Assembly (NCBI GenBank): GCA_000992325.1
Contig: LBTZ01000022.1
Location: 1-51,066, forward strand
DNA from: Parcubacteria group bacterium GW2011_GWD2_38_11
GTDB lineage: Bacteria > Patescibacteriota > Minisyncoccia > Moranbacterales > GWC2-37-73
Length of the DNA stretch: 51,066 nt
Direction: 5' to 3'
Part shown: positions 1,043 through 51,066 of the stretch, in pieces
Layout: every line of letters starts with the position of its first letter
How positions within the stretch are numbered: position 1 is the stretch's first letter
Position numbers and translations under genes: made by a program
Notes under the pieces: model-generated
What the model was told of the DNA's origin: nothing
The model's input: the letters and a program-made list of their open reading frames with translations, nothing else
The model's database searches: none

Positions 1043-1140
1043 TAAAAAATTAATCATTTGGATTTGAGTCATTTGTTTGAAATTTGTCATTGAGATTTTG
1101 GATTTAAAATCTGCATTAAAAATCATAAAATATTAAAAAA

Positions 1141-1857
1141 ATGTTAACCGATAATAAAAAAAGTCTTCCTTTGCATATCGCCATCATTCCTGATGGAAAC
1201 AGGCGATGGGCAAAAGAAAAAAATCTTGAGCCGTGGCAGGGCCATAAGGCTGGAGCGGAAAAATTGGAGCAACTCGCTCGCTGGGCTTTTAATAATGGGA
1301 TTTTTTGTCTTTCATTCTGGGGATCGTCTTTAAAAAATCTTGAAAAAAGACCACTCAGAGAAAAACAGGAATTGTTAAAAATTTATGAAGAATATTTCAA
1401 GAAATTAATTGTAGATGAAGATATTCACCGCAACCGCGTAAGAATAAATGTGATTGGAAAATGGGAAAGTCAGTTTCCAACATCTCTAAAAAAGATTATA
1501 CTTGAAGGAGTTGAAAAAACAGCTCATTATGAAGAGCACGAGTTGAATTTCTTTTTGGCTTATAGTGGTGATGATGAAATGTTGGATGCTGTTCGGGCAA
1601 TTGCTGGAAGCGGAATTGATCCTAAAGAAATCACAGCTGAGACGATTAAACAAAACTTGATGACCAGTAAATTGCCAGCAGTTGATTTGCTGATTAGAAC
1701 AGGTGGTGAGCCTCATTTGAGTGTAGGTTTTATGATGTGGGATATCGCTAACTCATATTTATATTTTTCAAAAAAGTATTTTCCTGATTTTAATGAGACT
1801 GAGTTATCCGAAGCTATAAATGAATATTCCGCCAGTGGGAAGAGAGGGGGTAAATAA
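1141..1857 (+). CDS. uppS: undecaprenyl diphosphate synthase (cis-prenyltransferase)
   Basis: HIAIIPDGNRRWA, GHKAG, VDLLIRTGGE motifs. Confidence 0.92.
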   Translation: MLTDNKKSLPLHIAIIPDGNRRWAKEKNLEPWQGHKAGAEKLEQLARWAFNNGIFCLSFWGSSLKNLEKRPLREKQELLKIYEEYFKKLIVDEDIHRNRVRINVIGKWESQFPTSLKKIILEGVEKTAHYEEHELNFFLAYSGDDEMLDAVRAIAGSGIDPKEITAETIKQNLMTSKLPAVDLLIRTGGEPHLSVGFMMWDIANSYLYFSKKYFPDFNETELSEAINEYSASGKRGGK

Positions 1858-1961
1858 CTTAGTCAATAACCAAGAAACAATAACCAAATAAATCTCAAAT
1901 CACAAGCTTCAAAACAAAAGGGATTTGATTATCATATCTTTGTTATTAAGATAAAACTATT

Positions 1962-3074
1962 ATGAAGAAAATGCTCCTGGTGCTATTTTTTACGATGTTG
2001 CTGGTGCCCAATATTTCCTTGGCACAGGAAAAAAAACAGGCTGTTTATTTTTATGCAACTTGGTGTTCGCATTGCCAAAAGGTTGATTCCTTTTTGAAGG
2101 AGAATGGTTTTTATGGTAAATATGACATTAAAAAGTTTAATTTTGATGAAAGGGAAAATAAAATTCTCTTAAAAAAAGTGCTTGATGGCAAGATGATTGC
2201 AGACGGTGGAATTCCGGCGATGATTATTGATGAAGAAGTTTTTCTTGGGGATGTGCCCATCATCGATGCTTTTGAGAAAAAAATGGAAGCTTCAAATGGA
2301 ACAGCGCTGCAATATGTTGAAAAGTTTGGAGCTGGAAAGCAAGATGCAATCAAAGAATCTCCAAAACCAAAAAAAGAAGAATTCAGGGGAAGCAATGATG
2401 GTGTGGCTTTGCCACTATTGTTAGGTGCGGCATTAAGCGATGCAATTAATCCTTGTGCTTTTGCAGTGCTTATTTTGCTCGTTGGAACTGTGCTTAGGGC
2501 ACAAGGCAGGCGCAGGGCACTTTGGGCGGGACTATTGTTTTCTTTGGCGATTTTTATTTCGTATTTCTTGATGGGGTTGGGACTGTATAAGGCAATTACA
2601 ATTTTTAATATTCCAAAATATTTTTCATTGGTTGTTGGATCATTGGCTATTTTGATAGGATTAGCAAATCTAAAAGACACTTTTTGGTATGGAAAATTGT
2701 TTATTATGGAAGTGCCATTGTCTTGGCGTCCTAAAATGCAAACAATTTTGAAACATGCTACTAGTCCATTTGGTGCATTTACGAGTGGACTTCTGGTCAG
2801 TTTATTTTTGCTGCCTTGTTCAAGTGGTCCGTATATTGTGATTGTGGGGTTATTGGCAGAAAAAGTTAATGTGGCAGTTGCGACTTCTCAACTTGCTTTG
2901 TATAATTTTATTTTTGTCTTACCAATGCTTGCGATAACCTTGGGAATGTATTTCTTTAATTTTCAAATGGCCGAACTTGAAAAAATTCGCAGAAGTAATC
3001 TCAAGGTACTTCATGCGATTGTAGGAACTATTATGGTTTTGATGGGAATATATTTAATACAAGGATGGCTATAG
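1962..3074 (+). CDS. thioredoxin-fold domain fused to CcdA/DsbD-like transmembrane electron-transfer domain
   Basis: signal peptide, WCSHC, then TM domain with INPC and LPCS cysteines. Confidence 0.8.
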   Translation: MKKMLLVLFFTMLLVPNISLAQEKKQAVYFYATWCSHCQKVDSFLKENGFYGKYDIKKFNFDERENKILLKKVLDGKMIADGGIPAMIIDEEVFLGDVPIIDAFEKKMEASNGTALQYVEKFGAGKQDAIKESPKPKKEEFRGSNDGVALPLLLGAALSDAINPCAFAVLILLVGTVLRAQGRRRALWAGLLFSLAIFISYFLMGLGLYKAITIFNIPKYFSLVVGSLAILIGLANLKDTFWYGKLFIMEVPLSWRPKMQTILKHATSPFGAFTSGLLVSLFLLPCSSGPYIVIVGLLAEKVNVAVATSQLALYNFIFVLPMLAITLGMYFFNFQMAELEKIRRSNLKVLHAIVGTIMVLMGIYLIQGWL

Positions 3075-3251
3075 ATAAAATTGTAAGTTTAAAATTGCAT
3101 TCAGCTGTATAAGTCATCAGTCATCAGTAACCTGTAATTGATATGGGAGGATGACCGATGACTGATTGCTGATGACTATCATTAATTAATATTAATTTAA
3201 TAAATAATTGCATATTTAAACAGTAAATATCAGTTATTTTGTCACAAAATT

Positions 3252-3569
3252 ATGGAAATGGAGTTTACAGACCAGAATTTTGAACAAGAAGTTTTGAGGA
3301 GCGATGTGCCGGTGTTGGTTGATTTTTGGGCACCGTGGTGTGGACCGTGTCAGATGATGGGACCAATCGTGGAAGAGTTGGCAAGAGAAATGGGGGACAA
3401 GGCAAAAGTTGGAAAACTTAATGTTGATGAAAATGGAGAAATTTCATCAAAATTTGGTATTATGTCTATTCCTGCTATCAAAATCTTTAAAGATGGCGAG
3501 GTTGTAAAAGAATTTGTAGGGGTTCAATCTAAAGAAAATCTCAAAAAAGAATTGGAAGCACTTGCCTAG
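3252..3569 (+). CDS. trxA: thioredoxin
   Basis: VDFWAPWCGPC, SIP. Confidence 0.96.
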   Translation: MEMEFTDQNFEQEVLRSDVPVLVDFWAPWCGPCQMMGPIVEELAREMGDKAKVGKLNVDENGEISSKFGIMSIPAIKIFKDGEVVKEFVGVQSKENLKKELEALA

Positions 3570-3589
3570 GCTCTTTTTTATTTGAATTG

Positions 3590-4609: not shown

Positions 4610-4777
4610 AGAATTGATGAAGTTTTGAATTTTGTGAGATTAAGAATATTTTTTAAATTTTCAATTTTCAGTTTCCAATTTTCAAATAATTTTCAATTTT
4701 TCAATTTACCAATGATTGAAAATTCAAGTATTGAAAATTAAATGTGAATTGTGAATTGATAATTGATCATTGTTGTT

Positions 4778-5908
4778 ATGGATGCAATTGAATTATCAAA
4801 AAAAATGGGCGGGAAAATTGAGATAAGATCTAAGAAGAAATTAACCAAGGAAAGTCTGTCTATTTTGTATACACCAGGCGTTGCTGACGTTTGTAGAGCT
4901 ATTGCAAAAAACAAAAAACTCTCATTTGAATATACAATCCGTAAGAATACGGTGGCGGTTATTTCTGATGGAAGTGCTGTTTTGGGTCTTGGCAATATTG
5001 GTCCAGAAGCAGGACTACCAGTGATGGAAGGAAAGGCACTTTTGTTTAAGGAACTTGGCGGTGTGGATGCAATTCCGATAGTTTTGGCAACGCAAGATAC
5101 TGAAGATATTATTAAAATTGTGAAAGCTCTCGCACCAACTTTTGGAGGAATTAATTTGGAAGATATTTCTGCTCCGCGTTGTTTTGAAATAGAAAGACGC
5201 TTAAAAGACGAATTGGATATTCCTGTTATGCATGATGATCAACACGGAACAGCTATTGTTGTTTTGGCGGGACTGATTAATGCTCTTAAGGTTGTTAAAA
5301 AAGACATCAAAAAAATTAGAATTGTTATTTCTGGTGCAGGCGCTGCAGGGACTGCTATTATGAATCTTTTGATGAATTATGGCGCTAAGGATATTGTTGT
5401 GGTTGATAGCACCGGCATTATTTATAATGAGCGTCCCAGTGGGATGAATGATTCAAAAATGGAAATTGCAAAAATAACCAATCCTGAAAATTTACAGGGA
5501 ACACTACAGGATGCTTTGTTAGGTGCGGATGTTTTTATTGGCGTGAGCGCTCCTAACTTGATTAATCATCTTGATATTCGCAGAATGAGCAAAGATGCTA
5601 TCGTTTTTGCAATGAGTAATCCTATTCCTGAAATTATGCCAGATGAAGCTAAAAAGGGTGGAGCGGCAATTGTGGCAACCGGAAGATCTGACTATCCAAA
5701 TCAAATTAATAATGTATTGGTGTTTCCTGGCATTTTTCGTGGAGCGCTGGATACTCAAACAAAAAAAATAACAGAAATTCATAAATTGAAAGCAGCCAAG
5801 GCTCTTGCTTCTTTGATAAAAAAACCTACTCGTGATAAAATAATAATAAATGCACTTGATAAACGTGCAGTCAAAGTCGTGGCTAATGTTTTCAAAAAAC
5901 AAACATAA
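4778..5908 (+). CDS. NAD(P)-dependent malic enzyme (short form, no PTA domain)
   Basis: YTPGVA, DGSAVLGLGNIG, PVMEGKA, INLEDI, HDDQHGT, TGRSDYPNQINN; ATG at 4778 preferred. Confidence 0.92.
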   Translation: MDAIELSKKMGGKIEIRSKKKLTKESLSILYTPGVADVCRAIAKNKKLSFEYTIRKNTVAVISDGSAVLGLGNIGPEAGLPVMEGKALLFKELGGVDAIPIVLATQDTEDIIKIVKALAPTFGGINLEDISAPRCFEIERRLKDELDIPVMHDDQHGTAIVVLAGLINALKVVKKDIKKIRIVISGAGAAGTAIMNLLMNYGAKDIVVVDSTGIIYNERPSGMNDSKMEIAKITNPENLQGTLQDALLGADVFIGVSAPNLINHLDIRRMSKDAIVFAMSNPIPEIMPDEAKKGGAAIVATGRSDYPNQINNVLVFPGIFRGALDTQTKKITEIHKLKAAKALASLIKKPTRDKIIINALDKRAVKVVANVFKKQT

Positions 5909-5983
5909 AACATAAAACATGGAACATGGAACAAAGTTGGAGCATTGAAATGCTTTATGATCCATGCTTTATGATCCATAAAG

Positions 5984-6430: not shown

Positions 6431-6536
6431 GAACACGGATTAGCACTGATTGATGACTGATCAAATACGGATTAATGCTAAGAAAAATCTGTGATTCGTT
6501 TTGATCTGTATTTAATCTGTTAAATTAGTTTTATAC

Positions 6537-7157: not shown

Positions 7158-7292
7158 ATTATAAGTCATAAAACATAGAGCATAGAACATAAAAAATATA
7201 AAAAATAGCAAATATTTTTTTATTTCCGAGCAATCGCAGATATCAAAAGTTTTGATGCCTTTTATTATTTTATGCTGCGTGATTAATATCCT

Positions 7293-8312: not shown

Positions 8313-8524
8313 AAATTAGGATTTAGGTCGTAGGAAATACAAAAAATAGTAATTACTAAAATTACATAAAAATACTCTCACTTAAAAAGGATGCATAAAG
8401 CATCCTTGTTGCTTTGTTTAAGGTATAAAATACTTAAAATATTGATATTGTACATTATTAATAAGGGATAAATACAATTGTGGGTTTGTACTAAAAACCA
8501 ATTCCTAGCTCCTAAATCCTGTTT

Positions 8525-9820: not shown

Positions 9821-9906
9821 ATAATATTAGAAAGGCAACAAATTTATACATCAAATCTTGTTTGGTGTTTGTATCTTGGTTATTGTATCTTTAGTTTATC
9901 TCAATT

Positions 9907-13295: not shown

Positions 13296-13782
13296 TATAA
13301 TTTATCAAGTCAGTCAGGCAATCGCCCCGATTTATTGGGGAGGAAAGTCCGGACATTTCCTATGTAAATAGGAGCAAAGTAGCGGGTAACTCCCGTCCGT
13401 AGTGATGCGCGAGGTGCGAGCAGAGACGCCTTGATTTGAAAAAATCGGGCACCCTTCGGGGTGAGTCTTGATGGAAACATCAAGAGTGAAACGGCTAAAT
13501 CCTTACTTAAATGCAAGACCGTACTCCGATGCAAAGCATCGGGAATATCTAATTTCTAATATCTAATTTCTAATAAATTTCTAATATTTAATTTCAAATG
13601 TCTAAAATTTTTATTCATTGGTTATTAAAAAATTGGGATTTTATTGGAAATTGGAAATTGGTTATTGGTAATTCTGACGCTTTGCGTCGGTTTGTGTCGC
13701 TCGATCCCAATGGCAACATTGGGATAAGATAAATGATTGTCCCAGACAGAATCCGGCTTATCGGTTGGCTTGATAAATTATA
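13296..13782 (+). ncRNA. rnpB: RNase P RNA (type A-like) with ~165-nt insertion
   Basis: GAGGAAAGTCCGG, GTGAAACGG, P18 hairpin with GCAA loop, ACAGAATCCGGCTTA; ends pair as P1. Confidence 0.95.
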
Positions 13783-16082: not shown

Positions 16083-17516
16083 TTACTCTAGATAAGTGTG
16101 TATTGATGAAATTAAATAGAGCGAACCGGTTATGACGACTGGTTTTTTTGATGCGCGAATAGGCTTGATAATTTCAGATTTTTTGTTTCCGATGATTGAA
16201 AACTTTTTGAATTTTTGGGATTTGAAAAACGCTGAAATTTCTTGATTGTCGATAGAATTCCAGTGATTATCCATTCCTGAAGTGGAAAATTGTGTGAGCA
16301 GGATTTTGTCTGCTAGTGGGATGATATATTTTAGCATTACTTTGAAATCCTTGCCTTTCTTAAAAGCGACAACGAAAGTGAATTTTTGTGAGGGATAAAT
16401 TTTGGCAAGATTGCTGGTAAGAGCTTTCATTTTTTGCGGATTGTGCGCACCGTCGATGATCAATGCTTTGTCATTAATTTTGCGAATTTCTAATCTCCCA
16501 GTGACAGTGATATTTTCGAGCGCATTGCGCAAAGATTTTTCATTGACATCAAATTTGTCACGCGCTGATAATATTGAAAGGCAAGCGAGTGCGAGTGAAC
16601 AGTTTTCAGCTTGATGAATTCCAATCAAGCCTAAATGGATATTTTTTAAAGATAGTTTTTTTTCTTTGTCATTCCGGGCTTGACCCGGAATCCAGCCGGA
16701 CTTTATAGTTATATTGCTAACCGATGATTTTAATAAAGGCCGGATTCCCGTTTTCACGGGAATGACACAATGAAAATTAAAAACAGTTTCATTAGCGGTT
16801 GACGAAATGATGGAATAATTTTTCTTATTTAAAATGTTCAACTCCGCATTTTTTTTCTCGCACCTCGTCTTTATTGTATTGATGACTGATGACTGATGAC
16901 TGATGACTGAATTCCTAGTTCCTATAATTCCAGCTTTTTCAGAAGCGATCTTGGAAATAGTGTTTCCGAGAATTTGAGTGTGATCCAATCCTAGTTTTGT
17001 GATGATGCAAATTTTGTTTTTACTGGTGACTGTGTTGGTCGCATCCAGTGTTCCGCCAAGCCCTGTTTCCATCACAGCGTAGCCCAGTTTTTCTTTGGCG
17101 AACATAAAAAAAGCGAGAGCAACATTTATTTCAAAAAAAGTTGGCATACCATATTTACATTTTTCCATTTTTAAAATAATTGGCAAAATTTGGTTGAAAT
17201 ATTTAAGAACCAGTTTTTCATTTGCCAACTGATTGTTGATTTGCATTCTTTCGCGGATATCAAAAACGTGAGGAGAAATAGAGAGTCCCACAGAAAATCC
17301 TTGGCTTTGCAATATGTGGCTAATAAGGTGTGCAGTCGAGCCTTTGCCAGAAGTCCCAGCTATGTGGATAACTCTGATTTTGTTTTGAGGATTTTTGAGT
17401 AATTTCATGAAATATTTAGCTCTTCTTAAACCAATATCTCCCATAAACAAAGCCTCCCTCGTTGGAATACGGGTTTGTATGAAGGCTTCAAATTGTGCCA
17501 ATGTTGTAATTTTCAT
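16083..17516 (-). CDS. folC: folylpolyglutamate synthase / dihydrofolate synthase
   Basis: IHIAGTSGKGST, SPH....ER, ETGLGGTLDATN, IASEKAGI, IDGAHN, ITGSLY. Confidence 0.93.
   Translation of the reverse strand: MKITTLAQFEAFIQTRIPTREALFMGDIGLRRAKYFMKLLKNPQNKIRVIHIAGTSGKGSTAHLISHILQSQGFSVGLSISPHVFDIRERMQINNQLANEKLVLKYFNQILPIILKMEKCKYGMPTFFEINVALAFFMFAKEKLGYAVMETGLGGTLDATNTVTSKNKICIITKLGLDHTQILGNTISKIASEKAGIIGTRNSVISHQSSVINTIKTRCEKKNAELNILNKKNYSIISSTANETVFNFHCVIPVKTGIRPLLKSSVSNITIKSGWIPGQARNDKEKKLSLKNIHLGLIGIHQAENCSLALACLSILSARDKFDVNEKSLRNALENITVTGRLEIRKINDKALIIDGAHNPQKMKALTSNLAKIYPSQKFTFVVAFKKGKDFKVMLKYIIPLADKILLTQFSTSGMDNHWNSIDNQEISAFFKSQKFKKFSIIGNKKSEIIKPIRASKKPVVITGSLYLISSIHTYLE
16668..16766. 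repeat. dRS3/RPE-like palindromic element inserted in frame in folC
   Basis: GTCATTCCGGGCTTGACCCGGAATCC ... GGATTCCCGTTTTCACGGGAATGAC, 99 nt. Confidence 0.88.
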
Positions 17517-19020: not shown

Positions 19021-19173
19021 TTTTATTTTAGCCCTTTTTTATTTTAAAAAACCGTGGTAAAATGATAATAGTTATAAGATTGAGAAAGTTGCAAGTTATA
19101 AAGCAAGAGCTTGTGATTTTTGTGTTCCTAACTTTATAAACCTTAAGAACCTTACAACTTTACAAACTTTTAT

Positions 19174-19833
19174 ATGCGATTTGATATAATTACAATTTTT
19201 CCGAAGATTTTTGATAGCTATTTTGGCGAGTCAATTATTAAGCGTGCTAAGGAAAAGGATGCTGTTGAAATTAATGTGCATAATTTGCGAGATTATTCAA
19301 CCAACAAACATCATAATGTTGATGACACACCATATGGTGGTGGCGCTGGAATGGTGATGCAAGTCGAGCCAATTTATCGAGCAGTGGCTGACATTCAGAA
19401 AGCCAATTTGAAAACCAGAACAATTTTGTTTTCTGCTAAGGGAAAGAGATACAAACAAAAAGATGCAAAAAGATTGTCCCAATATGACCAGCTTATTTTT
19501 GTTTGTGGAAGATATGAAGGTGTTGATGAAAGAGTGGCACAGTTTGTCGTTGATGAGGAAATTTCCATTGGAGACTTTGTGCTGACTGGCGGCGAAATTC
19601 CGGCAATGTTGGTGGTGGACTCTGTCACGAGATTGCTGCCAGGAGTTTTGGGTAATGATCAAAGCGCAGTTGAGGAATCGCACAGCGAAGAAGGCTATTT
19701 GGAATTTCCACAATATACTAAACCGGAAAAATTTTTAAAGTGGGAGGTGCCTAGCGTGCTGCTTAGTGGAAATCACAAGGAAATTGAAAGATGGCGAAAG
19801 GGAAACTCAAAGAATTTGAAATTTAAAATTTGA
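19174..19833 (+). CDS. trmD: tRNA (guanine-N1)-methyltransferase
   Basis: [33 protein letters not shown]. Confidence 0.96.
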
Positions 19834-20015
19834 AATTCGAAATCAATTTTTAATAAATAAATTTTCAATGTTTTTAAAATTAAGACATTGGAATATTAGT
19901 ATTTGATTAAAAATTTCAAATTAAAAATTAAAAATTTGATAGTCAAAATAAAAAGGTAAAACTTTATTATTTAGAGATGTTGAAATAAGTAGAATATTAT
20001 ATAGAAGCGACCAAT

Positions 20016-21122: not shown

Positions 21123-21283
21123 CAATTTATGCTGGATTTATTGCGCGTTTGTTGCTATACTGAGTATATAAATACAATTTTCAATTCACAATTTTCAATG
21201 CATAAATTTTCAAACATTTGGAAATTTGGTCATTGGAAATTGTTTAGAAATTGGAAATTAAAAATTAGAAATTATTTAAAAGT

Positions 21284-22393: not shown

Positions 22394-22542
22394 GCGAGCA
22401 CACAGATGAATGCGGATTTGAAACTGATGTACACGGATAACGAAGTTGAAAAGTGTAGCCCGTTTAATTTCTGGATTATCTGTGATCTGTAAAAATCTGT
22501 ATTTAATCAGTATTTAATCCGTCTAAATCAGTTTTTAAATAT

Positions 22543-23928
22543 ATGGAAATTAAAGATATTAAAAAAGCTTATTTTATCGGTATTAAGGGTGCAGGTATGA
22601 CTGCTGTGGCTCAAATTTTGCAAAGCAGAAATATTGAAATTTCCGGCTCCGATACGGGCGAGGTTTTTTATACTGATGCGATATTAAAACGTTTGAAAAT
22701 CCCATACTACGAGGAATTTATAGCGCGGCATATTCCAAGCAATGTTGATGTTGTTATTTATTCCACTGCTTACAACGAAGGAAATAATGTTGAAATGGCT
22801 GAGGCTAAAAAGATGGGTGTTTTGATGCTGAGTTATCCTGAAATTTTGGGACTTTTGTTTGCTGAAAAACTGGGCATTGCAGTTTGCGGAACACACGGAA
22901 AAACAACCACCTCAGCTATGCTTGCCAGTGCTCTTGCCCAAGCAGAATTGGAGCCCAGTGCAATTGTTGGAAGCAATGTTATTTCGTGGGAGGGAAGCGC
23001 GCTTTCGGGTAGTGGAGAATATTTTGTGGCTGAAGCTGATGAATATCAAAACAAACTTCGTTTTTATCAGCCGTGGTCCGTGATTCTTACAAGCGTTGAT
23101 TGGGATCATCCAGATTTTTTTCCAGATTTTATTTCCTATAAAAAAGTGTTTCAGGATTTTGTGAAAAAAATTCCCAAAACAGGTTTTTTGGTGGTTTGGG
23201 GGGATAGTAGTGACACTTTGGAAGTTGCCGACAGTGCAAATTGTAATTTGCTTACCTATGGATTTGGGGAAGATAATGACTATAGAATAATAAACAACAG
23301 ACAACAAACAACAGACAACAAAGTCATACAGAGATTTGAAGTTGAATATGATGGAAAAAATTTGGGAGAATTTAGTTCGCCACTTTCCGGTAAACACAAT
23401 ATTTTAAACGCCGCTTCTGTTATTGCACTTTCTCATAAAATGGGATTGGATTTGGAAAAAATAAAAAAATCCCTGAATGAATTTGAGGGAACCACGAGAC
23501 GTTTTGAATATATTGGAAAATACAAAGAAGCATTGCTTATCGATGATTATGCTCATCATCCAGATGAAATCAAAGCAACGCTTGCTGGCGCCAAAGATCG
23601 CTTTGAAGGAAAAAGAATCTGGACAGTTTTTCATCCGCACACTTTTTCTAGAACAAAAGCTTTGCTTCAAGACTTTGCTCAAAGTTTTGATAACACTGAG
23701 CGTGTTATTATTATTGATACGTATGGAAGCGCGCGCGAAACCGGTGGGGAGGCCACTTCTGAAGATCTGGTAAAATTGATTAATAAATATAATTATGACA
23801 AAGCCGAATATATTCCAAGTATAGAAGAGGCTACGCAGTATCTGAAAGAAAAGTCAGGAGAATATGATGTGCTTATTACTATGGGTGCAGGAGATGTTTG
23901 GAGGGTTGGACAAGCACTTAAAGAATAA
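22543..23928 (+). CDS. murC: UDP-N-acetylmuramate--L-alanine ligase
   Basis: FIGIKGAGM, GTHGKTTT, EADEY, DHPD, DDYAHHP, MGAGD. Confidence 0.94.
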   Translation: MEIKDIKKAYFIGIKGAGMTAVAQILQSRNIEISGSDTGEVFYTDAILKRLKIPYYEEFIARHIPSNVDVVIYSTAYNEGNNVEMAEAKKMGVLMLSYPEILGLLFAEKLGIAVCGTHGKTTTSAMLASALAQAELEPSAIVGSNVISWEGSALSGSGEYFVAEADEYQNKLRFYQPWSVILTSVDWDHPDFFPDFISYKKVFQDFVKKIPKTGFLVVWGDSSDTLEVADSANCNLLTYGFGEDNDYRIINNRQQTTDNKVIQRFEVEYDGKNLGEFSSPLSGKHNILNAASVIALSHKMGLDLEKIKKSLNEFEGTTRRFEYIGKYKEALLIDDYAHHPDEIKATLAGAKDRFEGKRIWTVFHPHTFSRTKALLQDFAQSFDNTERVIIIDTYGSARETGGEATSEDLVKLINKYNYDKAEYIPSIEEATQYLKEKSGEYDVLITMGAGDVWRVGQALKE

Positions 23929-26792: not shown

Positions 26793-27518
26793 ATGAAATT
26801 GATAGAAGTTGAAAATTTGGTTAAAACTTACGACAGTGAAGGCGTGCAGACTCAGGCAATGAGGGGTCTGACTTTTACGATTGAAAAAGGGGAATTCGTT
26901 TCCATTATGGGACCAAGTGGTTCTGGCAAATCAACTTTGATGCAGATTTTAGGGATGTTAGATCGGCCTTCTGAGGGGGTGTATCTTTTTGAGGGAAAGG
27001 ACATAAACTCTTATTCTGATGATGAATTGTCAAAACTTCGAAATAAAAAAATTGGTTTTGTTTTTCAATCTTTTAATTTGCTTCCGCGCACTACAGTATA
27101 TGAAAACACGGAGCTTCCACTTCTTTACGATGAAGATCATTTGGAAGTGCATAATGAGGAAAAAATAAACAAAGCCCTTGAGGCTGTTGGAATGAGTCAT
27201 CGCACGCAATATCTTTCTAATCAGCTTTCTGGCGGCGAAAAGCAGCGTGTGGCCATTGCGCGCGCTCTTGTTAATGACCCAGAGGTTATTTTTGCTGATG
27301 AACCAACGGGAAATCTGGATTCAAAATCAGGACTTGCTGTGATGAGAATTTTGCAAAAACTCAACAATGAAGGACACACTGTTATTTTGGTCACTCATGA
27401 AACTTATACCGCGCAGCATGCTAAACGTATCTTGAATATGAAAGACGGAATGGTTGTTTCTGACGAATTGGTGAAGGATCGCTTAATTGCAGATGGGGAA
27501 GGAGAACTTTTAAAGTAA
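26793..27518 (+). CDS. ABC transporter ATP-binding protein (MacB/LolD-like)
   Basis: [30 protein letters not shown]. Confidence 0.93.
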
Positions 27519-27692
27519 TTTCCAATAACCAATTTCCAATTTCCAATAAATTCGCCATCCGGCGAAATTGCAATACAGTGAAGTTGTTTTTATTTTGGTT
27601 TGAAAATTTAAAGAATTAAAAATTGATTGAAAATTGAAAATTGTGAATTGAAAATTATAAATTTGATAAAACGCACAAATCTCTAAAATTAC

Positions 27693-28934
27693 ATGAAGCT
27701 TTCTAGCCCGATTAAAATATCTTATAAAAACCTGATGGCGGCCAAGTTCCGCTCGTTTTTGACGATTCTGGGGATTATTATTGGAATTGCTTCGGTGATT
27801 ATCGTGATGGCAATCGGTGCAAGCGCTCAACAACTCATTATTGCGCAGGTTTCAGGTGTTGGTTCGAATCTCGTTGGGGTTTTGCCGGGGGCTTCGGATG
27901 AAAAAGGTCCGCCAGCATCTGCGCTTGGGATTGTGACGACAACACTAAAACAACCTGATCTGGATGCTGTTTTGCTGAAAAAAAATGTGCCAAACGCTGT
28001 AGCAGCTTCTGGATATGTCAGTGGAATAGGAACGGCAAGGTATAAAAATAATTCTAGGCAGAATAATTTTCAAGGTGTTTCCGCGGATTTTATTAATGTG
28101 GAAAAAAACGATTTGGGATCTGGAAGATTTTTTACTAGTGAAGAAAATTCAGGTCTAGCTCGTGTGGCAGTTTTGGGTGCAACTACGGCGAAAGAACTTT
28201 TTGAAACTGAGGATCCGATTGGAAAAATGTTTTCTCTTAAAGATGTGAATTTTACAGTGATTGGTGTTTTGGCGCCAAAGGGTGGATCGGCAGTTTCTAA
28301 TCCTGATGAGTTGGTGTATATGCCATTGCTTACTGCACAAAAAATTCTGCTTGGAATCGACTATCTTAATTTTATGCGTGTTAAGATTGATAATCCTGAA
28401 AACATAACTCGCGCAGTTGCAGATATAAAATATACCATCAGGGTTCAGCATAGAATAAAAAATCCAAGCGATGATGATTTTTCAGTGCGGGATACTGCAC
28501 AGGCACTTAATGTGATCACAAACATAACCAATGTTCTTAAATATTTTTTAGCTGGAATCGCGGCAATTTCTTTGTTGGTTGGAGGGGTTGGTATTATGAA
28601 TATTATGCTAATTTCAGTTACACAACGTATTCGCGAGGTTGGTCTTAGAAAAGCTGTTGGTGCACGTAATCGTCATATTATCACACAGTTTTTGATTGAA
28701 TCTGTTTTTATTACTTTGGTTGGTGGCATAATCGGAATTATTTTTGGAATTTTAATATCACTTTTAGCAGCAGTAATTATTAATGCCTTGGGATATGATT
28801 GGGAATTTTTGATTTCATTTAGTTCGATTATAATTGCAACGTTGGTTTCAGTGCTGATAGGATTGTTATTTGGACTTTATCCTGCAAAAAAAGCAGCCAA
28901 GATTTCACCAATGGAAGCATTGAGATATGAGTAA
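27693..28934 (+). CDS. ABC transporter permease (MacB/FtsX family)
   Basis: RSFLTILGIIIG, GGVGIMNIM, REVGLRKAVGA, P.EALRYE. Confidence 0.92.
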   Translation: MKLSSPIKISYKNLMAAKFRSFLTILGIIIGIASVIIVMAIGASAQQLIIAQVSGVGSNLVGVLPGASDEKGPPASALGIVTTTLKQPDLDAVLLKKNVPNAVAASGYVSGIGTARYKNNSRQNNFQGVSADFINVEKNDLGSGRFFTSEENSGLARVAVLGATTAKELFETEDPIGKMFSLKDVNFTVIGVLAPKGGSAVSNPDELVYMPLLTAQKILLGIDYLNFMRVKIDNPENITRAVADIKYTIRVQHRIKNPSDDDFSVRDTAQALNVITNITNVLKYFLAGIAAISLLVGGVGIMNIMLISVTQRIREVGLRKAVGARNRHIITQFLIESVFITLVGGIIGIIFGILISLLAAVIINALGYDWEFLISFSSIIIATLVSVLIGLLFGLYPAKKAAKISPMEALRYE

Positions 28935-29057
28935 TAGTTTGTAAAGTTTATAAAGTTCATAAAGTTTGTAAGGTTCATAAAGTTTGTAATGTTTGTAAAG
29001 TTCATAAAGTTCATAAAGTTTGTAAAGTTTGTAAAGTTTGTAAGGTTCATAAAGTAA
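28935..29057 (+). repeat. 9-nt tandem repeat, ~13 units of AAGTT(T/C)(G/A)TA
   Basis: fills the whole spacer between the two permease genes. Confidence 0.9.
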
Positions 29058-29058: not shown

Positions 29059-30312
29059 ATGAGAAGATTAATATTATCAATTAGGCTTGCATTGCATAAT
29101 CTGACGAATAATGTCGGCAGGACTGTTTTAACATTGGTTGGAATTGTGATTGGGATTATGTCGGTGATAGTGGTTTCTTCTAGTGGACAAGGATTGAAAA
29201 ATTATGTGCTTGGCCAATTTGATAGCTTTGGAACTGATGTGATTCAAATTGAAACCAAGGTTCCGGCAACAGGAAAAACTTCTGCGGCAAATGCACAAGG
29301 TCAGGCAACTGGAATTCAAATAACCACCCTAAAGATTTCAGACGGGGAAGCATTAGCGAAAATTCCTAATGTGGCAAGTTTTGCTGCGGGGACAATAGGT
29401 CAAGAGTTGGTTAGTCACAAGGATGAAAATAAAAGGGTTATGCTTTTTGGTGTGGGTGCAAGTTATCCTGAAGTGGATAGTGCGGTCAAAGTTCAGGAGG
29501 GAATTTTTTATGATCAGTCGACAGATGATAGCTTGGGGCAGGTCGCAGTTATTGGTCCTGATATCAAGGAAACTCTTTTTGGCACTGAGGATGCTATTGG
29601 AAAATCAATCAAAATTAAAAATATGGATTTTCGTGTGATTGGCGTTTTGGAAAAAAGAGGAGCTGTCACGTTTTTTAATTACGACGAACTTATTTATATT
29701 CCAGTACAAACTTTGCAAAAGAAAATTTTAGGTATCGATTATGTGCGTTTTATTACGGTTAAAGTTAAGGATCAAAGCCTCATTGAAGTAACAGTGGCAG
29801 ATATTAATGACACACTTAAGCGAATTCATCGTACGTATAAACCCGAGCAAGAGGATTATTCAATCACAACTATTCAAGAGGCGCAAAAAATTGTAGAGGA
29901 TGTTTTTGGAACAATTAATATTTTGCTGCTTGCTCTCACTTCCATTTCTTTGATTGTGGGTGGAGTGGGGATTATGAATGTGATGTATGTGGCTGTATCC
30001 GAGCGAACATTTGAAATAGGCCTTAGGAAGGCAGTGGGTGCAAAGGAGAATGATATTCGCAATCAGTTTTTGTTTGAAGCTGTTTTCCTTACGATTGCCG
30101 GCGGAATGGTGGGGGTGGTGTTGGGATATGCTATTTCACTTGCTTTTTCTTATATTATCAGTTTGCTTGGCTATACGCTTAATTTTTCCCTTACTTTAAA
30201 TTCTATTTTAATAGCAGTTGGTTTTTCAGCTGCCACCGGAATCATTTTTGGATATTATCCAGCTTATAAGGCATCAAAACTTTCACCAATGGAGGCGCTT
30301 CGAAAGGAATAG
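29059..30312 (+). CDS. second ABC transporter permease (MacB/FtsX family)
   Basis: RTVLTLVGIVIG, GGVGIMNVM, EIGLRKAVGA, PMEALRKE. Confidence 0.92.
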   Translation: MRRLILSIRLALHNLTNNVGRTVLTLVGIVIGIMSVIVVSSSGQGLKNYVLGQFDSFGTDVIQIETKVPATGKTSAANAQGQATGIQITTLKISDGEALAKIPNVASFAAGTIGQELVSHKDENKRVMLFGVGASYPEVDSAVKVQEGIFYDQSTDDSLGQVAVIGPDIKETLFGTEDAIGKSIKIKNMDFRVIGVLEKRGAVTFFNYDELIYIPVQTLQKKILGIDYVRFITVKVKDQSLIEVTVADINDTLKRIHRTYKPEQEDYSITTIQEAQKIVEDVFGTINILLLALTSISLIVGGVGIMNVMYVAVSERTFEIGLRKAVGAKENDIRNQFLFEAVFLTIAGGMVGVVLGYAISLAFSYIISLLGYTLNFSLTLNSILIAVGFSAATGIIFGYYPAYKASKLSPMEALRKE

Positions 30313-30594
30313 GTAATTAGGTGCTAGGTATTAGGTGTTAGGAAATGCGAAATACGTAGTTTGAAATTTGTTAAAACCTAATATCTATAACCTAGAACCT
30401 AGCAGAATACTACACAATATTTTCTACAACCTCGCAAGTTGTAGATTTTATGCTGTTATGGTAACATATAAGGACAAATTAATCTGTAAAAAACAGGTTT
30501 ATTCTGGTCATATTAATGTCAGGATTAAATATAATAATTAAATAATGATAAGTTGTTTCTCCAAGAGAGACTCAAATCTTATTTAACAAGGTAG

Positions 30595-39903: not shown

Positions 39904-40026
39904 CGAGCGTAATTTCGAAGTTTGAATTTCGAATTTCGAATAAAATCACAATGAACAAATGTTTAAAACATTAAAAATTCAATCATTGGAAATTCATTCA
40001 AAATTAAAAATTCAAAATTAAAAATT

Positions 40027-40308
40027 ATGGAACGTGGAGGAATTATAAAAAATGATATTTCTAAGTCTCCCAAAACAGGGGATTGGGCATATTCAAAACC
40101 AGAAGTTGATAAGGATAAATGCATTGGCTGTGAAACTTGTGTTCAATATTGTCCAGATGCTTGTATTGAAATGCAAACTCACAACTCACAACTCACAACT
40201 GACAACAAAAAACAAAAAAAAGTTGCTGATATCGATTATGATTTTTGCAAAGGCTGTGGCGTTTGCGCGCAAGTATGCCCAGTCAAAGCAATTTCCATGA
40301 GGAAATAG
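40027..40308 (+). CDS. porD: pyruvate:ferredoxin oxidoreductase delta subunit (2x4Fe-4S)
   Basis: KTGDW, CIGCETC..YCP, DYDFCKGCGVCAQVCP. Confidence 0.92.
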   Translation: MERGGIIKNDISKSPKTGDWAYSKPEVDKDKCIGCETCVQYCPDACIEMQTHNSQLTTDNKKQKKVADIDYDFCKGCGVCAQVCPVKAISMRK

Positions 40309-40472
40309 CTTTGAAATTTACAATGATCAATTTTCAATTTACATTGAAATCTCAATGATGCAATGAATAAATGAAAAAAGATTTAATTGGAAATTAGAAA
40401 TTGAAAATTTAATGAAAATTGTGAATTGAAAATTGAAAATTTGATAGGCTTAATTTATATCATCTTGAAATA

Positions 40473-41651: not shown

Positions 41652-41795
41652 TTTTATGAATTTCAAATTTCAAATTAAAAATGTCAAATAAAATCCAAAT
41701 GATAAAATGACTAAATTAGAATTAAGGTTTGAAAATTTAATTCATTGGAAATTCAATGAAAATTGAAAATTGTGAATTGAAAATTATTTATACAT

Positions 41796-42875: not shown

Positions 42876-42878
42876 AAG

Positions 42879-42951: not shown

Positions 42952-43007
42952 CAGCGAATTTTTTGTATATTTGTATTTTTGTATAATTTTGTAATTTTGT
43001 AGACCCT

Positions 43008-44555: not shown

Positions 44556-44615
44556 TCACTCCATTTCGTATATTTGTACTTTTGTAAAAATTTGTAAGTT
44601 TGTAGCCAATATTGT

Positions 44616-45711
44616 ATGAAAGAAATATTAGACAGTCTTATCGTGATAAAAAATAAGCTCCCGCTTTTGCGGGACTATCTTTGACGTTGCTAATAAAAAG
44701 AAAAAAATTGTAGAACTAGAACAAAAAACCGCAGAGGATGGTTTTTGGAATGACAATCAAAAGGCGGCAAAAATCTCGCAGGAGCTTGAACTCCTCAAAA
44801 ATGAAGTTACGGGGCTTGAAAATATTGAAAAAAAAGTCGCAGAGCTTATTGAACTCATTGGTCTTTTCGAAGACTCTGAAAGTGAGGAAAAAAAAGAAGT
44901 TGAAAAGCAATTTCTTGAACTTGAAAAAGAATTTGATGCATTGGAATTTAAATCATTGTTGGGAGGTGAATATGACAAAAGTGATGTGATTTTGGCAATT
45001 AGGAGTGGTGCTGGCGGAGTGGATGCTCAAGACTGGGCGCAAATGCTTGAAAGGATGTATCTCAAATGGTCAGAAAAAAATGGTTTCAAGGCTGTTATGG
45101 TTGAGGAGACGCGTGGAGCAGAAGCTGGGATTAAAAGCGCGACAATTGAAATTTCCGGAGCTTATGCATATGGTTATTTGCAGAGTGAAGCTGGCGTGCA
45201 TCGATTGGTCAGACTTTCTCCTTTCAACTCTGACAATTTGCGTCAAACATCTTTTGCTATTGTCGAAATTTTGCCAGTAATCGAAGAAATTGCTGAAGTG
45301 ATTATAAGTCCGCAAGATCTTGTGATTGACACATATCGCGCATCAGGCGCTGGCGGACAACACGTGAACACAACAGATAGCGCAGTGCGCATCACGCACA
45401 CGCCAACAGGAGTCGTTGTTACTTGTCAAAGTGAACGTTCTCAGCTTCAAAATAAAGAGCAGGCAATGAAAGTTTTGAAAGCCAGAATTCATCAGCGATA
45501 TTTGGAACAGCAAAAGGCAGAAAAAGAAAAACTGCGCGGCGAATATAAAAGCGCTGAATGGGGAAGTCAAATTCGGTCATACGTTGTTCATCCGTACAAG
45601 ATGGTCAAGGATCATCGCACAAAATTTGAAACTTCTGATGCGGAAAAAGTTCTCGAGGGAGAATTGCAAGGATTTATGGAAAGCTATTTACGTTGGCAGG
45701 CAGGTGCGTAG
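44616..45711 (+). CDS. prfB: peptide chain release factor 2 with programmed +1 frameshift
   Basis: ATG 44616, 22 codons to CTT-TGA-C (44679-44685); +1 frame joins the ORF with SPF and GGQ motifs. Confidence 0.95.
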
Positions 45712-45834
45712 AATTTAGTGTTACTTTTTTTATATTGCTCTTCGTATTATTTTATTTGTGTGATATAATATAAAAGTAAAACTTTACAAACTTTATAAAC
45801 TTTATAAACTTTACAAACCTTATAAACTTTACTT

Positions 45835-46521: not shown

Positions 46522-46641
46522 AAATCTGCTGATTTTTAAATAGAATTTTCAAATCCCAATTTCCAATTTCCAAACAAAAGGAATAAATAATTATTTTAAT
46601 GGCTAAAAAGCTAAGAAGCTAAAACCTAAAAAGCTGTTTAT

Positions 46642-49198: not shown

Positions 49199-49279
49199 AA
49201 TAAAGTATAATACTTTATTTTAGTATAGCATAAATTAAAAATTATACATAGTATAATAATATTTTTTGATATCAAACAA

Positions 49280-49735
49280 TTAGGCGAGTGGGATTTGGAT
49301 AAGTTTCACAATATCAGCAATTGTTATAACTCCAACCAGTTCATTGTTTTCGGAAATTACTGGAACAGTGTGCAGCTTGGATTCCTTTATGAGTTTAAAC
49401 ATTGCTGAGATATCATCATCAGGACAAAGTGTGGTGCAATTTTCAGACATAATATCCACCGCTCTTGCTTCTAGCAATTGTTTGAATTGCTGCTGCTTTT
49501 TTTCATCCATTGAATTCTCAGAGACAGTATTTTTCAAAAAATCAATAAAGAATGGAAGGTAGACTTCATTTTTTGTGAAAAAATCAGTTTCAGTTATTAT
49601 TCCAACCAATTTGGAATCAGAGACCACTGGAACTCCGTGAATGCGATTTGTATGCAAGATTTTTGCAACGTCGGTAATTTTAGTATCGACAGTTACGGAT
49701 ATGACATTGCTCGTCATTGCTTCCTTGATTTTCAT
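49280..49735 (-). CDS. tandem CBS domain protein
   Basis: PVV...LVGIITETD and PVI....LVGVITIADI. Confidence 0.88.
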   Translation of the reverse strand: MKIKEAMTSNVISVTVDTKITDVAKILHTNRIHGVPVVSDSKLVGIITETDFFTKNEVYLPFFIDFLKNTVSENSMDEKKQQQFKQLLEARAVDIMSENCTTLCPDDDISAMFKLIKESKLHTVPVISENNELVGVITIADIVKLIQIPLA

Positions 49736-49856
49736 ATTTATGTATGGTTATTAAATATATATGTATGTATATCTATATTATACACTTTTTTCGGGGTAGT
49801 ACAATTTTTCCCTAAATTAATATGTATCTCATCTTCTTCATTGATGTTGTTTTATA

Positions 49857-50780
49857 TTGGAGTGCCAGGATTTCCGCGTCGCTTGTTCGTCGACACTCAC
49901 AATCTCCTTGTACGCGGTGGCGGAAAATGCTCCTATGGTCGCATCTTCCGGCGTTCGCTGCGAAAAATTCCTGCTGAAATTTTTCTAGCTTACTGCCACC
50001 GGTTCGAATCCTAGCTCAATAAATAAAACAAAAACAAAGGACTCCATAAAAAGAGTACTTTGTTTTTGTTTTATCAGTTGGGGACGTGGGACGCTGTCGG
50101 AAACTATTTGATGTCTATGAAATAAATAAGGCTCCCTAGGAATGATCCATGGGAGCCAGTTTGCAAACTTTTCGGAAAGGGTTGTTTACGCGAAATGCAG
50201 TTTGCGTGCAAGCTCGCGACGGATGATTCCGATGGCCTCATGGAAAATATCCTTGAGGTGACGGCACGGTGAGGGTACCTGAGAGTCATCGTAGTTGATG
50301 ACCGGCCAGATTTTTCCGGCTCGAATCAGGTCGTGCAACTTTACTGCTTCATCAAGATCTGTGAATTTGATGACAAGGCAGTATTCATAGTTTTTGGCAT
50401 TTGGCATGAAATAAAAGTCTAAGACTCCCACGCTATTGCCAAGTCGGTATTCTCCTTTTGTTCGAGTAGCGCCGCGGTCGAAATAGGTGTATGAAGTGAA
50501 AAAATCAAAATTTCCTGCCTCAAGAATTTCTTTTCTGGCAAGAACGAGATCACTTCCAACACTTTTTCCATCCTTCTCATCTTTTTTGAATCCATGAATC
50601 GAAGCCATGATATTCTCCTTTCTTCTTTCCGTCCTGAATCTTTTCAGGATCGGTAGTGGGGAATGAACTTTCACTGGAACCATTCCAATGAATAGATAAT
50701 GGTAGCATAAAAAACAATACCTGTCAATATTGAAAGATTTAAACACAATAAAAGGCTTCATAAAAGCCTTTTTATATTTG
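49857..50780. mobile_element. small island bounded by the tRNA-Gln 3' end and its partial duplicate
   Basis: 49857-49872 TTGGAGTGCCAGGATT matches 50781-50796 at 15/16; no integrase present. Confidence 0.5.
50186..50608 (-). CDS. hypothetical protein (140 aa)
   Basis: SD AAAGGAG before ATG 50608; TTGACA-17-TACCAT promoter at 50727-50699. Confidence 0.7.
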   Translation of the reverse strand: MASIHGFKKDEKDGKSVGSDLVLARKEILEAGNFDFFTSYTYFDRGATRTKGEYRLGNSVGVLDFYFMPNAKNYEYCLVIKFTDLDEAVKLHDLIRAGKIWPVINYDDSQVPSPCRHLKDIFHEAIGIIRRELARKLHFA

Positions 50781-50852
50781 TTGGAGTGCTAGGATTCGAA
50801 CCTAGGGATGGCGGTACCAGAAACCGCTGCCTTACCGCTTGGCTACACTCCA
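50781..50852 (-). tRNA. tRNA-Gln(CTG)
   Basis: TGGAGTGTAGCCAAGCGGTAAGGCAGCGGTTTCTGGTACCGCC...GGTTCGAATCCTAGCACTCCAA. Confidence 0.94.
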
Positions 50853-51066
50853 GGATGATATATAACATATAACATATAACATATAACAAAAATACGAAAT
50901 ACGACACACGTCATACAAAAGCTAGTATAGCATTTTCAATCAAAAAATCAAGATGTGGGCAGCAATACCGTCTTCTATCCAATAGCTTGGAAACACTTAA
51001 CTAAGGAATTTGGGGTTTTAAAGTCTATGCCCATGTGCAGTCTTTCAGTATTGTAAAATTCAAGAT

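Follow-up and report, generated by a model that had tools for sequence, protein, structure and literature searches.

The window analyzed here is the whole of contig LBTZ01000022.1 (C22), 51,066 nt of DNA from Parcubacteria group bacterium GW2011_GWD2_38_11, a tiny (0.94-Mb) groundwater bacterium. Its intergenic spacers hold short tandem arrays with a period of mostly 7–9 nt, typically as an inverted pair of arms. With a probability of roughly 0.65, we consider these arrays to be the stem arms of selfish hairpin cassettes that resemble the intervening sequences (IVS) of ribosomal RNA (rRNA) genes, together with gene-less derivatives of such cassettes. Most copies, including every one in the window, are gene-less; in complete members of the class the hairpin tip holds a single small gene. 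Cassette and arms travel together, whole elements have been copied to other loci and individual sites switch state among congeners. The arrays change by concerted replacement of their units and in unit number, yet a modal arm of 31 nt is kept.

The genome to which the window belongs (G000; handles with G, C and L stand for genomes, contigs and loci) comprises 935,829 bases in 39 contigs, has about 37% G+C and is 90.2% complete.

Periodic arrays in the intergenic spacers

Open reading frames (ORFs) were called crudely, as the longest ORFs of at least 70 amino acids with greedy resolution of overlaps. The resulting set holds 704 spacers of at least 30 nt (124,563 nt) genome-wide, of which 47 lie in the window. 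The identity between positions 7 nt apart is 0.3254 in these spacers, compared to 0.2873 in 30 dinucleotide-preserving shuffles (z 29.5), which confirms the proposal of an earlier sequence-only reading of the window that period-7 repeats are pervasive in spacers. Stretches of 14 nt with at least 13 matches at lag 7 number 335, where 1.7 are expected, and the corresponding counts are 37 against 0.6 at lag 8, 137 against 0.1 at lag 9 and 263 against 0.7 at lag 14. Lag-7 runs occur at 269 per 100 kb in spacers and at 39 per 100 kb in ORFs, sevenfold fewer per base.

Genome-wide, a custom detector identified 203 period-7 arrays built from 75 canonical units, mostly AT-rich ones such as AATTTYN, AACAACT and GTCATCA, and arrays are present in 135 to 240 of the 704 spacers, a fifth to a third of the total. 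The length distribution of period-7 arrays reported by Tandem Repeats Finder (TRF) has its mode at 4.4 copies, equal to 31 nt, with 69 rows, whereas each value between 3.0 and 3.9 copies is represented by only 7–15 rows. For periods 7, 8 and 9 the arm-length data fail to separate a constant copy number from a constant length.

Several details of the sequence-only reading need to be adjusted. Arrays in more than 20 spacers of the window are obtained with a looser count (22 of 47 with a TRF array scoring at least 36), but the stricter detector gives 14 of 47. When the 26 intervals that had been listed were each compared with 200 shuffles, 20 passed a period or an inverted-repeat test (period p ≤0.01 in 16, inverted repeat p ≤0.015 in 15) and six, starting at 1054, 9858, 41657, 19070, 44565 and 46600, passed neither. 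TRF arrays still lie within or overlap the intervals at 41657, 19070 and 46600, and for those at 1054, 9858 and 44565 copies of 30–55 nt with 87–97% identity exist in further spacers, either of this genome or of relatives. The unit had been thought to differ by locus; units are in fact shared, as the 203 arrays draw on 75 canonical units and the commonest recur 7–13 times. The arrays described as about 10-mers are present but irregular, with a spacing of about 10–11 nt, and the paired layout applies to most arrays but not to the single arms at 7165, 26757, 28935, 45778 and 50860. Finally, location is not purely intergenic, as copies had been overlooked at 13544–13673 in the RNase P RNA gene and at 16880–16910, 23292–23322 and 40176–40219, all three in ORFs.

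Pairing and position of the arms

In 37 of 47 pairs of neighboring period-7 arrays the units are within two mismatches of being reverse complements, compared to 13 of 47 in direct orientation. Of 243 arrays of period 7–9, 67 have a downstream antiparallel partner that scores at least 12 and is no more than 260 nt away, where a complement-only control gives 4. The description of the arms as roughly complementary is borne out by both counts. In co-directional contexts the stop codon and the start of the 5′ arm are separated by a median of 13 nt, and the end of the 3′ arm and the next start codon by a median of 14 nt, with a median arm length of 30 nt and a median distance of about 48 nt between arms. 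Paired elements are found in 57 of 529 co-directional spacers and in 8 of the 175 spacers that are convergent or divergent (Fisher p 0.015). Judged by eye, the hairpin continues more weakly through the stretch between the arms, and the inner motifs of this stretch are shared with gene-carrying cassettes of the same family. Minimum-energy folds pair 78% of arm positions arm to arm, although selecting the pairs by their complementarity has partly built in the folding z-scores. Canonical terminators and promoter-like sites adjoin the elements, and none was found within them.

One explanation is that these are RNA hairpins selected by the host, acting as intercistronic processing or stability signals or as translation-coupling devices that benefit operon expression. 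The exact position at cistron junctions (median distances 13 nt to the stop and 14 nt to the start) agrees with this, as do the enrichment in co-directional spacers, the stable folds and the frequent occurrence of the same unit family in neighboring spacers of one operon (around the S12, S7, L17 and GatC genes). There is also a precedent in the TAACTGA repeats found just upstream of starts, for which the cited part of one study proposes translational regulation (MacGregor 2015, PMC4679880). However, orthologous spacers between proteins that are mostly 90–97% identical are empty or contain other units or another period, and copies also occur within ORFs and the RNase P RNA gene, with terminators and promoter-like sites separate from them. 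The sequence-only reading had offered operon-wide RNA hairpins as one possibility. The hairpin potential itself is real, but the lack of a sense-strand G·U excess, the lack of a strand preference in folding stability and the fast turnover argue against a host device, which we consider unlikely.

Genes carried between paired arms

A profile search of contig C22 gave no match to PF05635 (four-helix-bundle) or PF13366 (PD-(D/E)XK ‘GxxExxY’). The earlier statement that neither gene is present here is therefore true of the window but not of the genome, which has five PF05635 matches over the family cut-off, one more below it, and two PF13366 matches. Inverted tandem-unit arms are clearly visible at four of the five PF05635 genes over the cut-off and, for PF13366, at one gene of two; one cargo gene of this genome lies at C2:8360-8716. 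Within the genus, PF05635 is found in all nine genomes (2–7 genes each) and PF13366 in seven of nine. The arm score is at least 12 at 23 of the 31 PF05635 loci, and both flanks have period 7 in 14 of the 31, period 8 in three and period 9 in three. The ten PF13366 loci have irregular 8–11-nt arms of ACGGAT, TTTGTA or CGCTGAT type. Cargo genes of the genus are thus bracketed by heptamers, by GTAAAGTTT 9-mers, by GCTAAAAA and TTTGTA 8-mers and by the ACGGAT ‘10-mers’, and therefore every arm class seen in the window has a cargo counterpart. The cargo gene has the same orientation as both neighbors in 33 of 40 cassettes and is opposed to both in none.

The arms follow the cargo. Protein pairs with more than 65% identity have an arm score of at least 30 in 7 of 9 cases, compared to none of 358 pairs below 50% identity (L053 and L063, with an atypical cargo frame or without arms, were left out of this count, and L041 was re-centered and retained). 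Several of the similar arm and cargo pairs map to different genomic sites. On the protein tree one deep clade (11 rows) has period-7 arms only, while the other mixes periods 7, 8 and 9. The arm period changes six times on this tree against a shuffled mean of 10.1, and none of 200 shuffles gave a value as low. This clustering of period shows heritability and not its cause, because kin share labels.

An alternative is that the arms are binding sites, in which case a pentameric four-helix-bundle protein would read five cores spaced 7 nt apart in its own arms, as RNA or single-stranded DNA (ssDNA), and would mark, protect or copy its cassette, with gene-less copies using the protein in trans. Consistent with this, an array at the 4.4-unit peak contains the first three bases of its unit five times, the entries of the solved relatives 2gsc and 2rld have five chains each, and arm sequence and period follow the protein tree. 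Linkage alone, however, accounts for the joint divergence of arms and protein. There are 75 unit types for five to six proteins in the genome, PF13366 cassettes are armed without any four-helix-bundle protein, the arm lengths at periods 8 and 9 do not distinguish constant copy number from constant length, and five chains in a crystal entry are not a demonstrated pentamer. Recognition of this kind is rather improbable, and the use of the protein in trans is equally so. We are similarly doubtful of the further idea that the pentameric protein rebuilds or copies arms so that their length stays fixed, and that it moves or protects the cassette, with the gene-less, in-frame and RNase P or rRNA copies as its parasites. 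From its locus tag, 2gsc (XCC0516) presumably comes from the Xanthomonas organism of the GGGAATC repeats considered below.

Co-occurrence with four-helix-bundle, GxxExxY or reverse transcriptase (RT) genes had also been suggested. It was found for PF05635 and PF13366, whose genes are bracketed by arms, but not for RT, which is absent from four cassette-bearing genomes. A diversity-generating retroelement, with an Avd-type four-helix bundle and an RT, was rejected on the same ground, with no RVT_1 match in G000, G001, G004 or G005, all of which bear cassettes. A search for cargo by flanking complementarity was rejected because most matches were housekeeping genes lying between two like elements.

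In the same genome an ORF6N-domain gene (G000:C18:7092-7739, L068; Pfam E 1.5e-32) is bracketed by 9-mer arms and may be a third kind of cargo.

Orthologous spacers and dispersal

Syntenic stretches were compared in the congeners G004 and G007, where the flanking proteins are mostly 90–97% identical to those of the window. The spacer at 40309–40472 exists in three states: a gene-less 164-nt AATTTTC element in the window, a PF05635 gene with GTATCTN / ATACNAA arms in G004 (L042) and G006 (L041), and an empty site in G007 with 12 nt from stop to start. Empty, filled and ORF-carrying alleles, which had been anticipated for a mobile cassette, are thus all found among congeners at one site. At a second site, the G004 ortholog of 44426–44940, there is a PF13366 gene with ACGGAT-type arms, and one gene-less element of G004 shares its unit type with a PF05635 cassette of the same genome. 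The sites at 3075, 6431, 21123, 27519, 28935 and 41652 have differing units or even a different period between genomes. In 30 relatives, reaching up to order level, the spacers ftsW–murG and murG–murC vary from minimal to more than 300 nt and contain unrelated units, and the trmD–ftsW spacer covers the same size range.

In the G004 and G006 orthologs of the gene at 40473 (L042, L041), the downstream gene has apparently gained a new N-terminus through translation of the right arm of the cassette, and an in-frame ATG overlaps the stop codon of the cargo.

Whole heptamer elements also match between loci, with 83–90% identity over 115–137 nt; window positions 39904–40026, for example, match the C10 spacer at 2830–2929 with 86.6% identity over 119 nt. 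Concerted changes confined to one arm could stem from conversion between arms or between copies, and template switching in quasipalindromes is a known process.

The arrays might instead be plain microsatellites, generated by polymerase slippage biased to 7-nt units, with the inverted layout secondary. Differences in unit number are of the kind this would produce, with 13.8 units here and roughly four in G007 at 28931–29055 and a difference of about 18 nt at 27519. Heptamers are over-represented in several bacteria, and a polymerase-footprint idea is cited in the relevant part of Rehm 2015 (PMC4692102). On the other hand, array length has a mode at 31 nt instead of a steady fall, arm complementarity is 67 against 4 in the control, whole elements recur including their inner parts, and cargo genes lie between arms. 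Slippage as the sole cause is already contradicted, and we regard this explanation as very improbable. The phrase ‘not plain slippage’ in the sequence-only reading is accordingly correct with respect to the 31-nt mode, arm pairing and dispersal, but the unit-number changes between congeners show that slippage-like change occurs too.

In metagenome contigs (runs X1, X3, X4 and X5; window positions 19000–38999) a related strain is present at about 20-fold higher depth and has other sequence at several spacers, with 127 different letters in place of 21199–21283. In these runs the contigs that belong to the window's own organism often end at spacers.

Copies inside RNase P RNA and protein genes

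The RNase P RNA gene of the window has 127 nt where the RF00010 model has 15, and this insertion is a gene-less, heptamer-armed element at 13544–13673 with arms at 13558–13577 and 13640–13659. Judging from the layout of the E. coli RNA, we take the insertion arm to be P15–P17. The site is filled in 6 of 16 genes inspected (G000, G004, G006, G013, G014 and G017, with differing units) and has a plain small hairpin in the other 10. These 16 come from 30 rnpB matches, eight being from the genus (including G000) and eight others picked mainly for length, so that the sample is not random.

The filled rnpB alleles (L104, L116, L100, L120, L121 and L108) contain a second small GC hairpin 5′ of the element that is like the native 3′ hairpin, and this could be a trace of the insertion mechanism.

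Three arrays lie in frame or within open ORFs of proteins. The array in the folC-like ORF replaces a loop, and the proteins of G004 and G007 differ over that stretch. In MurC the array has the same length in G004 and G007 and falls in a variable loop of the protein, and in the ferredoxin-like protein it adds seven residues relative to both G004 and G007.

Comparison with known systems

In layout the elements are like the IVS of the 23S and 16S rRNA genes of Coxiella and Leptospira, reported also for candidate phyla radiation (CPR) rRNA genes, with their S23p / 23S_rRNA_IVP ORF. These have terminal inverted repeats of about 28–31 bp, compared to a median arm of 30 nt here. They have an optional loop ORF of the PF05635 family (here in the genome and in G004 and G006, not in the window) with ORF-less versions at the same sites, and they insert at a helix tip of a structural RNA, as one copy does here in RNase P RNA. 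For Coxiella the cited part of the source describes a 28-bp stem cut by RNase III with the S23p ORF in the loop (PMC4990558), and CPR rRNA insertions are likewise described, in the cited part of another, as carrying the four-helix-bundle (PF05635) family (PMC11270868). Unlike the IVS, the other copies in the window are found in spacers or in frame in proteins, the arms consist of tandem 7–9-nt units and there is a second cargo, PF13366; RNase III cutting is known for the IVS and predicted here. No large-subunit rRNA was found in the organism's own 90%-complete genome, in which the 23S gene is unassembled.

The short tandemly repeated repetitive (STRR) elements of heterocyst-forming cyanobacteria are also tandem heptamers with many unit types and copies, mainly intergenic and also in rnpB; Vioque is said to have noted STRR heptamers in the cyanobacterial RNase P RNA gene in 1997. 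The cyanobacterial rnpB insertion is in P12, while we take the arm in the window to be P15–P17. STRR belong to another phylum, their unit sequences differ from those found here, and a paired layout with cargo is absent from their published description as far as seen.

Xanthomonas has intergenic GGGAATC arrays, mostly of at least four units. According to the cited part of Rehm et al. 2015 (PMC4692102), these include 70–75 convergent pairs per genome, possible stem-loops near ORF ends, and vary in length and sequence between close species. They differ from the arrays described here in having one G-rich unit that is read as quadruplex-forming, and no cargo is described in that part of the paper (PMC4692102).

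Repetitive extragenic palindromes (REP), bacterial interspersed mosaic elements (BIME), REP doublets forming hairpins (REPIN) and MITEs (miniature inverted-repeat transposable elements) are small, palindromic, non-coding spacer repeats that are mosaic, nested and strain-variable, as are the elements of the window. The latter differ in that no REP-associated tyrosine transposase (RAYT) or other transposase partner was found for them, no target duplication was seen and the arms are internally periodic. MITEs have terminal inverted repeats with a target-site duplication and derive from an insertion sequence with a transposase; the elements here have inverted arms, and their cargo genes belong to no known transposase family. 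Movement in the manner of REP/REPIN, by a Y1 (RAYT) transposase that works on ssDNA hairpins, would agree with the palindromic, intergenic, abundant and mosaic nature that the elements have in common with REP/BIME. However, there is no match to Y1_Tnp (PF01797) in the 90.2%-complete genome while control genomes do match, and the arms are tandem units and not a fixed REP sequence, which makes such a system highly improbable.

Rickettsia palindromic elements (RPEs) provide a further parallel, as hairpin repeats read in frame inside essential genes. RPEs are longer families of fixed sequence and are not known to have tandem-unit arms. In the literature covered, with most subscription journals outside that coverage, we found no report in which paired arms of tandem units are linked with PF05635 or PF13366 cassettes, and none of such arms in CPR genomes.

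Weighing the cassette interpretation

That the arrays could be scars of a mobile cassette had been raised by the sequence-only reading, and this part is supported by the arm-bracketed PF05635 and PF13366 genes, the three-state site and the recurrence of whole elements. Following the logic of the rRNA IVS, the arm stem of roughly 30 bp in an operon transcript would be cut by RNase III or simply tolerated, so that insertion between cistrons would cost little, and the cargo gene would be expressed by read-through. An RNase III gene (rnc, C1:59509-59901) is present in the genome.

A number of observations weigh against IVS-like selfish cassettes as the origin of the arrays. Abundant gene-less families such as GTCATCA and AACAACT have no gene-carrying partner in the 90%-complete genome. 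At the three-state site the units of the gene-less window copy differ from those of the G004 and G006 cassettes, which therefore points to re-occupation and not to decay in place. No target-site duplication was seen between filled and empty sites, no known transposase was found, and to our knowledge neither PF05635 nor PF13366 has shown a role in mobility. The sense strand has fewer G·U pairs than the antisense strand (41 against 69), so that no signal of a tuned sense-RNA stem is seen and the trend is if anything reversed. Arm mismatches in co-directional contexts are mostly non-wobble (174 of 284), and folding stability does not differ between the sense and the antisense strand (25 against 29 elements, Wilcoxon p 0.25). 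Both the transcription of the arms and their cutting by RNase III are predictions. The ORF calls are crude, and the counts are not independent because the relatives are kin.

Arrays along the window

The arrays and the genes that contain them are listed in Table 1.

Table 1. Repeat arrays of the window, with the RNase P RNA gene, and the support for each. TRF, Tandem Repeats Finder; p values are from 200 shuffles per interval.
Feature	Coordinates	Strand	Support
Lone degenerate arm, TTTGnnn-type heptads (1054–1110)	1043..1140		period p 0.575, inverted p 0.775
Degenerate CAAnAAn-type hairpin element (1863–1950)	1858..1961		inverted repeat beats 200/200 shuffles; period not significant
GTCATCA / TGATGAC paired arms	3112..3177		period p 0.005, inverted p 0.005
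AATTTTC-type left arm (~8 units) and GAAAATT-type right arm	4648..4772		TRF, shuffle test
Left arm AAACATA/AACATGG; right arm 14-nt x 2.1	5900..5980		both p 0 of 200
Irregular 10–11-nt ACGGAT / ATCTGT arms (PF13366-cassette type)	6431..6520		inverted p 0 of 200
Single CATAAAA array	7165..7207		period p 0; no partner found
Outer TAGG-type arms ~160 nt apart	8313..8520		inverted p 0.015
Lone right arm, GGTTATTGT family	9858..9895		not significant alone in shuffles
RNase P RNA gene (class A)	13306..13776	+	RF00010, 127.7 bits
TGATGAC x 4.4 (31 nt, 100% matches) in folC-like ORF	16880..16910	-	TRF; ORF stays open
9-mer arms, GTTATAAAG / AACTTTACA type, flanked on one side by a terminator and a promoter-like site and on the other by trmD	19060..19172		TRF
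AATTTGA left arm overlapping trmD stop and AAATTAA right arm	19812..19940		TRF, shuffle test
AATTTTC / GAAATTN element, 3′ of conserved promoter-like block, before murG	21173..21275		TRF, shuffle test
Irregular ~11-nt arms, ACGGAT / ATCTGT type	22398..22538		both p 0
31-nt heptamer-like array in murC	23292..23322	+	TRF
Single 9-mer array, AAAGTTTAT x 3.6	26752..26783		period p 0.01
AATTTCC left arm from within stop codon, GC hairpin, GAAAATT right arm	27516..27665		shuffle test
Direct array, GTAAAGTTT x 13.8, filling the spacer that separates two permease genes	28931..29055		TRF score 143–179
TAGGTAN left arm (stop codon within unit 1) and AACCTAN right arm	30310..30402		both p 0
AATTTCG / ATTCAAA element, member of dispersed whole-element family	39910..40027		shuffle test
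AACTCAC x 4.4, in frame, small ferredoxin-like gene	40176..40219	+	TRF
Gene-less AATTTTC / GAAAATT element at three-state site	40314..40442		83% over 137 nt with C9 spacer
AATTTCA / TGAAAAT element	41657..41786		TRF arrays; shuffles not significant
TTTTGTAA x 4.9 single arm after tRNA gene	42960..43001		TRF, shuffle test
Weak TTTGTA-type arm	44565..44605		not significant alone; copies 89–92% in three spacers
Single 9-mer array, AAACTTTAC x 6	45779..45832		TRF, shuffle test
Unlike arms, AATTTCC x 4.3 and GCTAAAAA x 4.4	46544..46635		TRF; shuffle test passed by the interval at 46543, not by that at 46600
ATATAAC x 4.1 (100% matches) adjoining tRNA gene	50860..50904		TRF, shuffle test

Several of these arrays have copies elsewhere. 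The arm at 1054–1110 matches a C7 spacer (87% over 55 nt) and a relative's element, L016 (89% over 37 nt). The element at 1863–1950 has copies of 89–97% identity in three other spacers and in L016/L022, and the arm at 9858–9895 has copies of 93–100% in four other spacers and in the same L016/L022. The unit type of 8313–8520, whose left end in G007 consists of five TAGGTTT-type units, is like that of the arms of a four-helix-bundle cassette on C15. ACGGAT / ATCTGT motifs also bracket PF13366 genes, as do TTTGTA-type arms at the PF13366 genes L086 and L087. The array at 5900–5980 begins at the stop codon of the upstream ORF.

Other sites illustrate concerted change and the shortening or lengthening of arms. 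At 4648–4772, four to five left-arm units read AATTTCC in G007, all with the same T/C change, and the right arm is unchanged, giving a concerted change of one arm. The right-arm units at 19812–19940 have changed in concert in G004 and G007, and this site is empty in six of the relatives listed. The G007 right arm at 27516–27665 is about 18 nt (2–3 units) shorter, and the G004 units there read AATTTTA. The element at 21173–21275 has AATTTCT units in G004, in L014 a GC-rich palindrome is nested in this same element, and L017 and L019 are minimal (74–76 nt).

Replacement and loss are seen at the remaining sites. In G007 a different, 9-mer element occupies 3112–3177 and a heptamer element occupies 6431–6520. 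In place of the direct array at 28931–29055, G007 has roughly four copies of the GTAAAGTTT unit (by eye) and G004 an unrelated GTATATG / ATACCAA heptamer hairpin. Three different elements are found at 41657–41786 in G000, G004 and G007, other elements replace the array at 45779–45832 in G004 and G007, and at 46544–46635 the right arm is the same in both of these genomes and the left arm is made of 9-mers. G004 and G007 have 31 and 15 nt, respectively, at the spacer 9685–9906, which is 222 nt long in the window. The element at 19060–19172 is kept with changes in G007, with a separate canonical terminator at 18988–19014, and that at 30310–30402 is kept in G007 and replaced in G004, with a separate terminator-like site at 30423–30445. 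The irregular arms at 22398–22538 are kept in G004 and reduced to one arm in G007, and the corresponding spacers are 31–45 nt long in L012, L013, L015, L019, L020 and L023.

Upstream of murG, a promoter-like block at 21123–21165 (TTGC..., 17 nt, TATACT/TATAAT) is kept across the family (orthologs L010–L021), and the repeat element lies between this block and the murG start, in what would be the 5′ leader. In the G007 ortholog of 42705–43007, an extra small hydrophobic ORF lies between TTTGTA-type arms just after the tRNA gene, and the window keeps the right arm only.

Other repeat classes and neighboring genes

A second class of repeats consists of GC-rich palindromes of the form GTCATTCCCG...CGGGAATGAC, found at 23970–24070, 24570–24690, 26025–26060 and about 15900–16080. 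They are also found in the folC-like ORF at 16083–17516, with in-frame read-through here and in G007, and some copies are missing from congeners and from the metagenome contigs of the related strain.

A third class is a palindromic MITE-like element of about 130 nt with a TTGGCACGCTTTTGGAT core, at about 9730–9800 and at 44470–44580 in the window and at C21:6791-7049, C8:37334-37531, C4:22682-22850, C1:27200-27352 and C6:11837-12063 elsewhere. Its copies are 89–96% identical across contigs, and it is found in other spacers in G004 and G007.

The prfB-like overlapping ORFs at 44738..44989 and 44941..45711 have the layout of a programmed +1 frameshift, with a CTTTGAC motif, and are the same in G004 and G007. 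The ORFs at 32284–39146, about 7 kb in all, lack counterparts in the stretches of G004 and G007 that are syntenic with the window and may be a variable island.

Significance

The new elements of this analysis are the three-state orthologous site, the test of whether arms follow cargo, the 31-nt mode, the negative strand tests and the polymorphic insertion in RNase P RNA. For the annotation of CPR genomes the elements matter in practice, as they lengthen ORFs or interrupt them, divide RNA genes, cause breaks in assemblies and make the boundaries of operons less clear. If the doubtful pentamer interpretation were true, it would describe a new kind of self-recognizing mobile unit and would explain heptamer repeats across bacteria. 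Over-representation of heptamers is known in cyanobacteria (STRR), Xanthomonas and Beggiatoaceae, and we found no agreed explanation for it in the literature covered. Here the heptamers are tied to a concrete unit, a hairpin cassette with a cargo family that is also found in rRNA intervening sequences, and their origin becomes testable.

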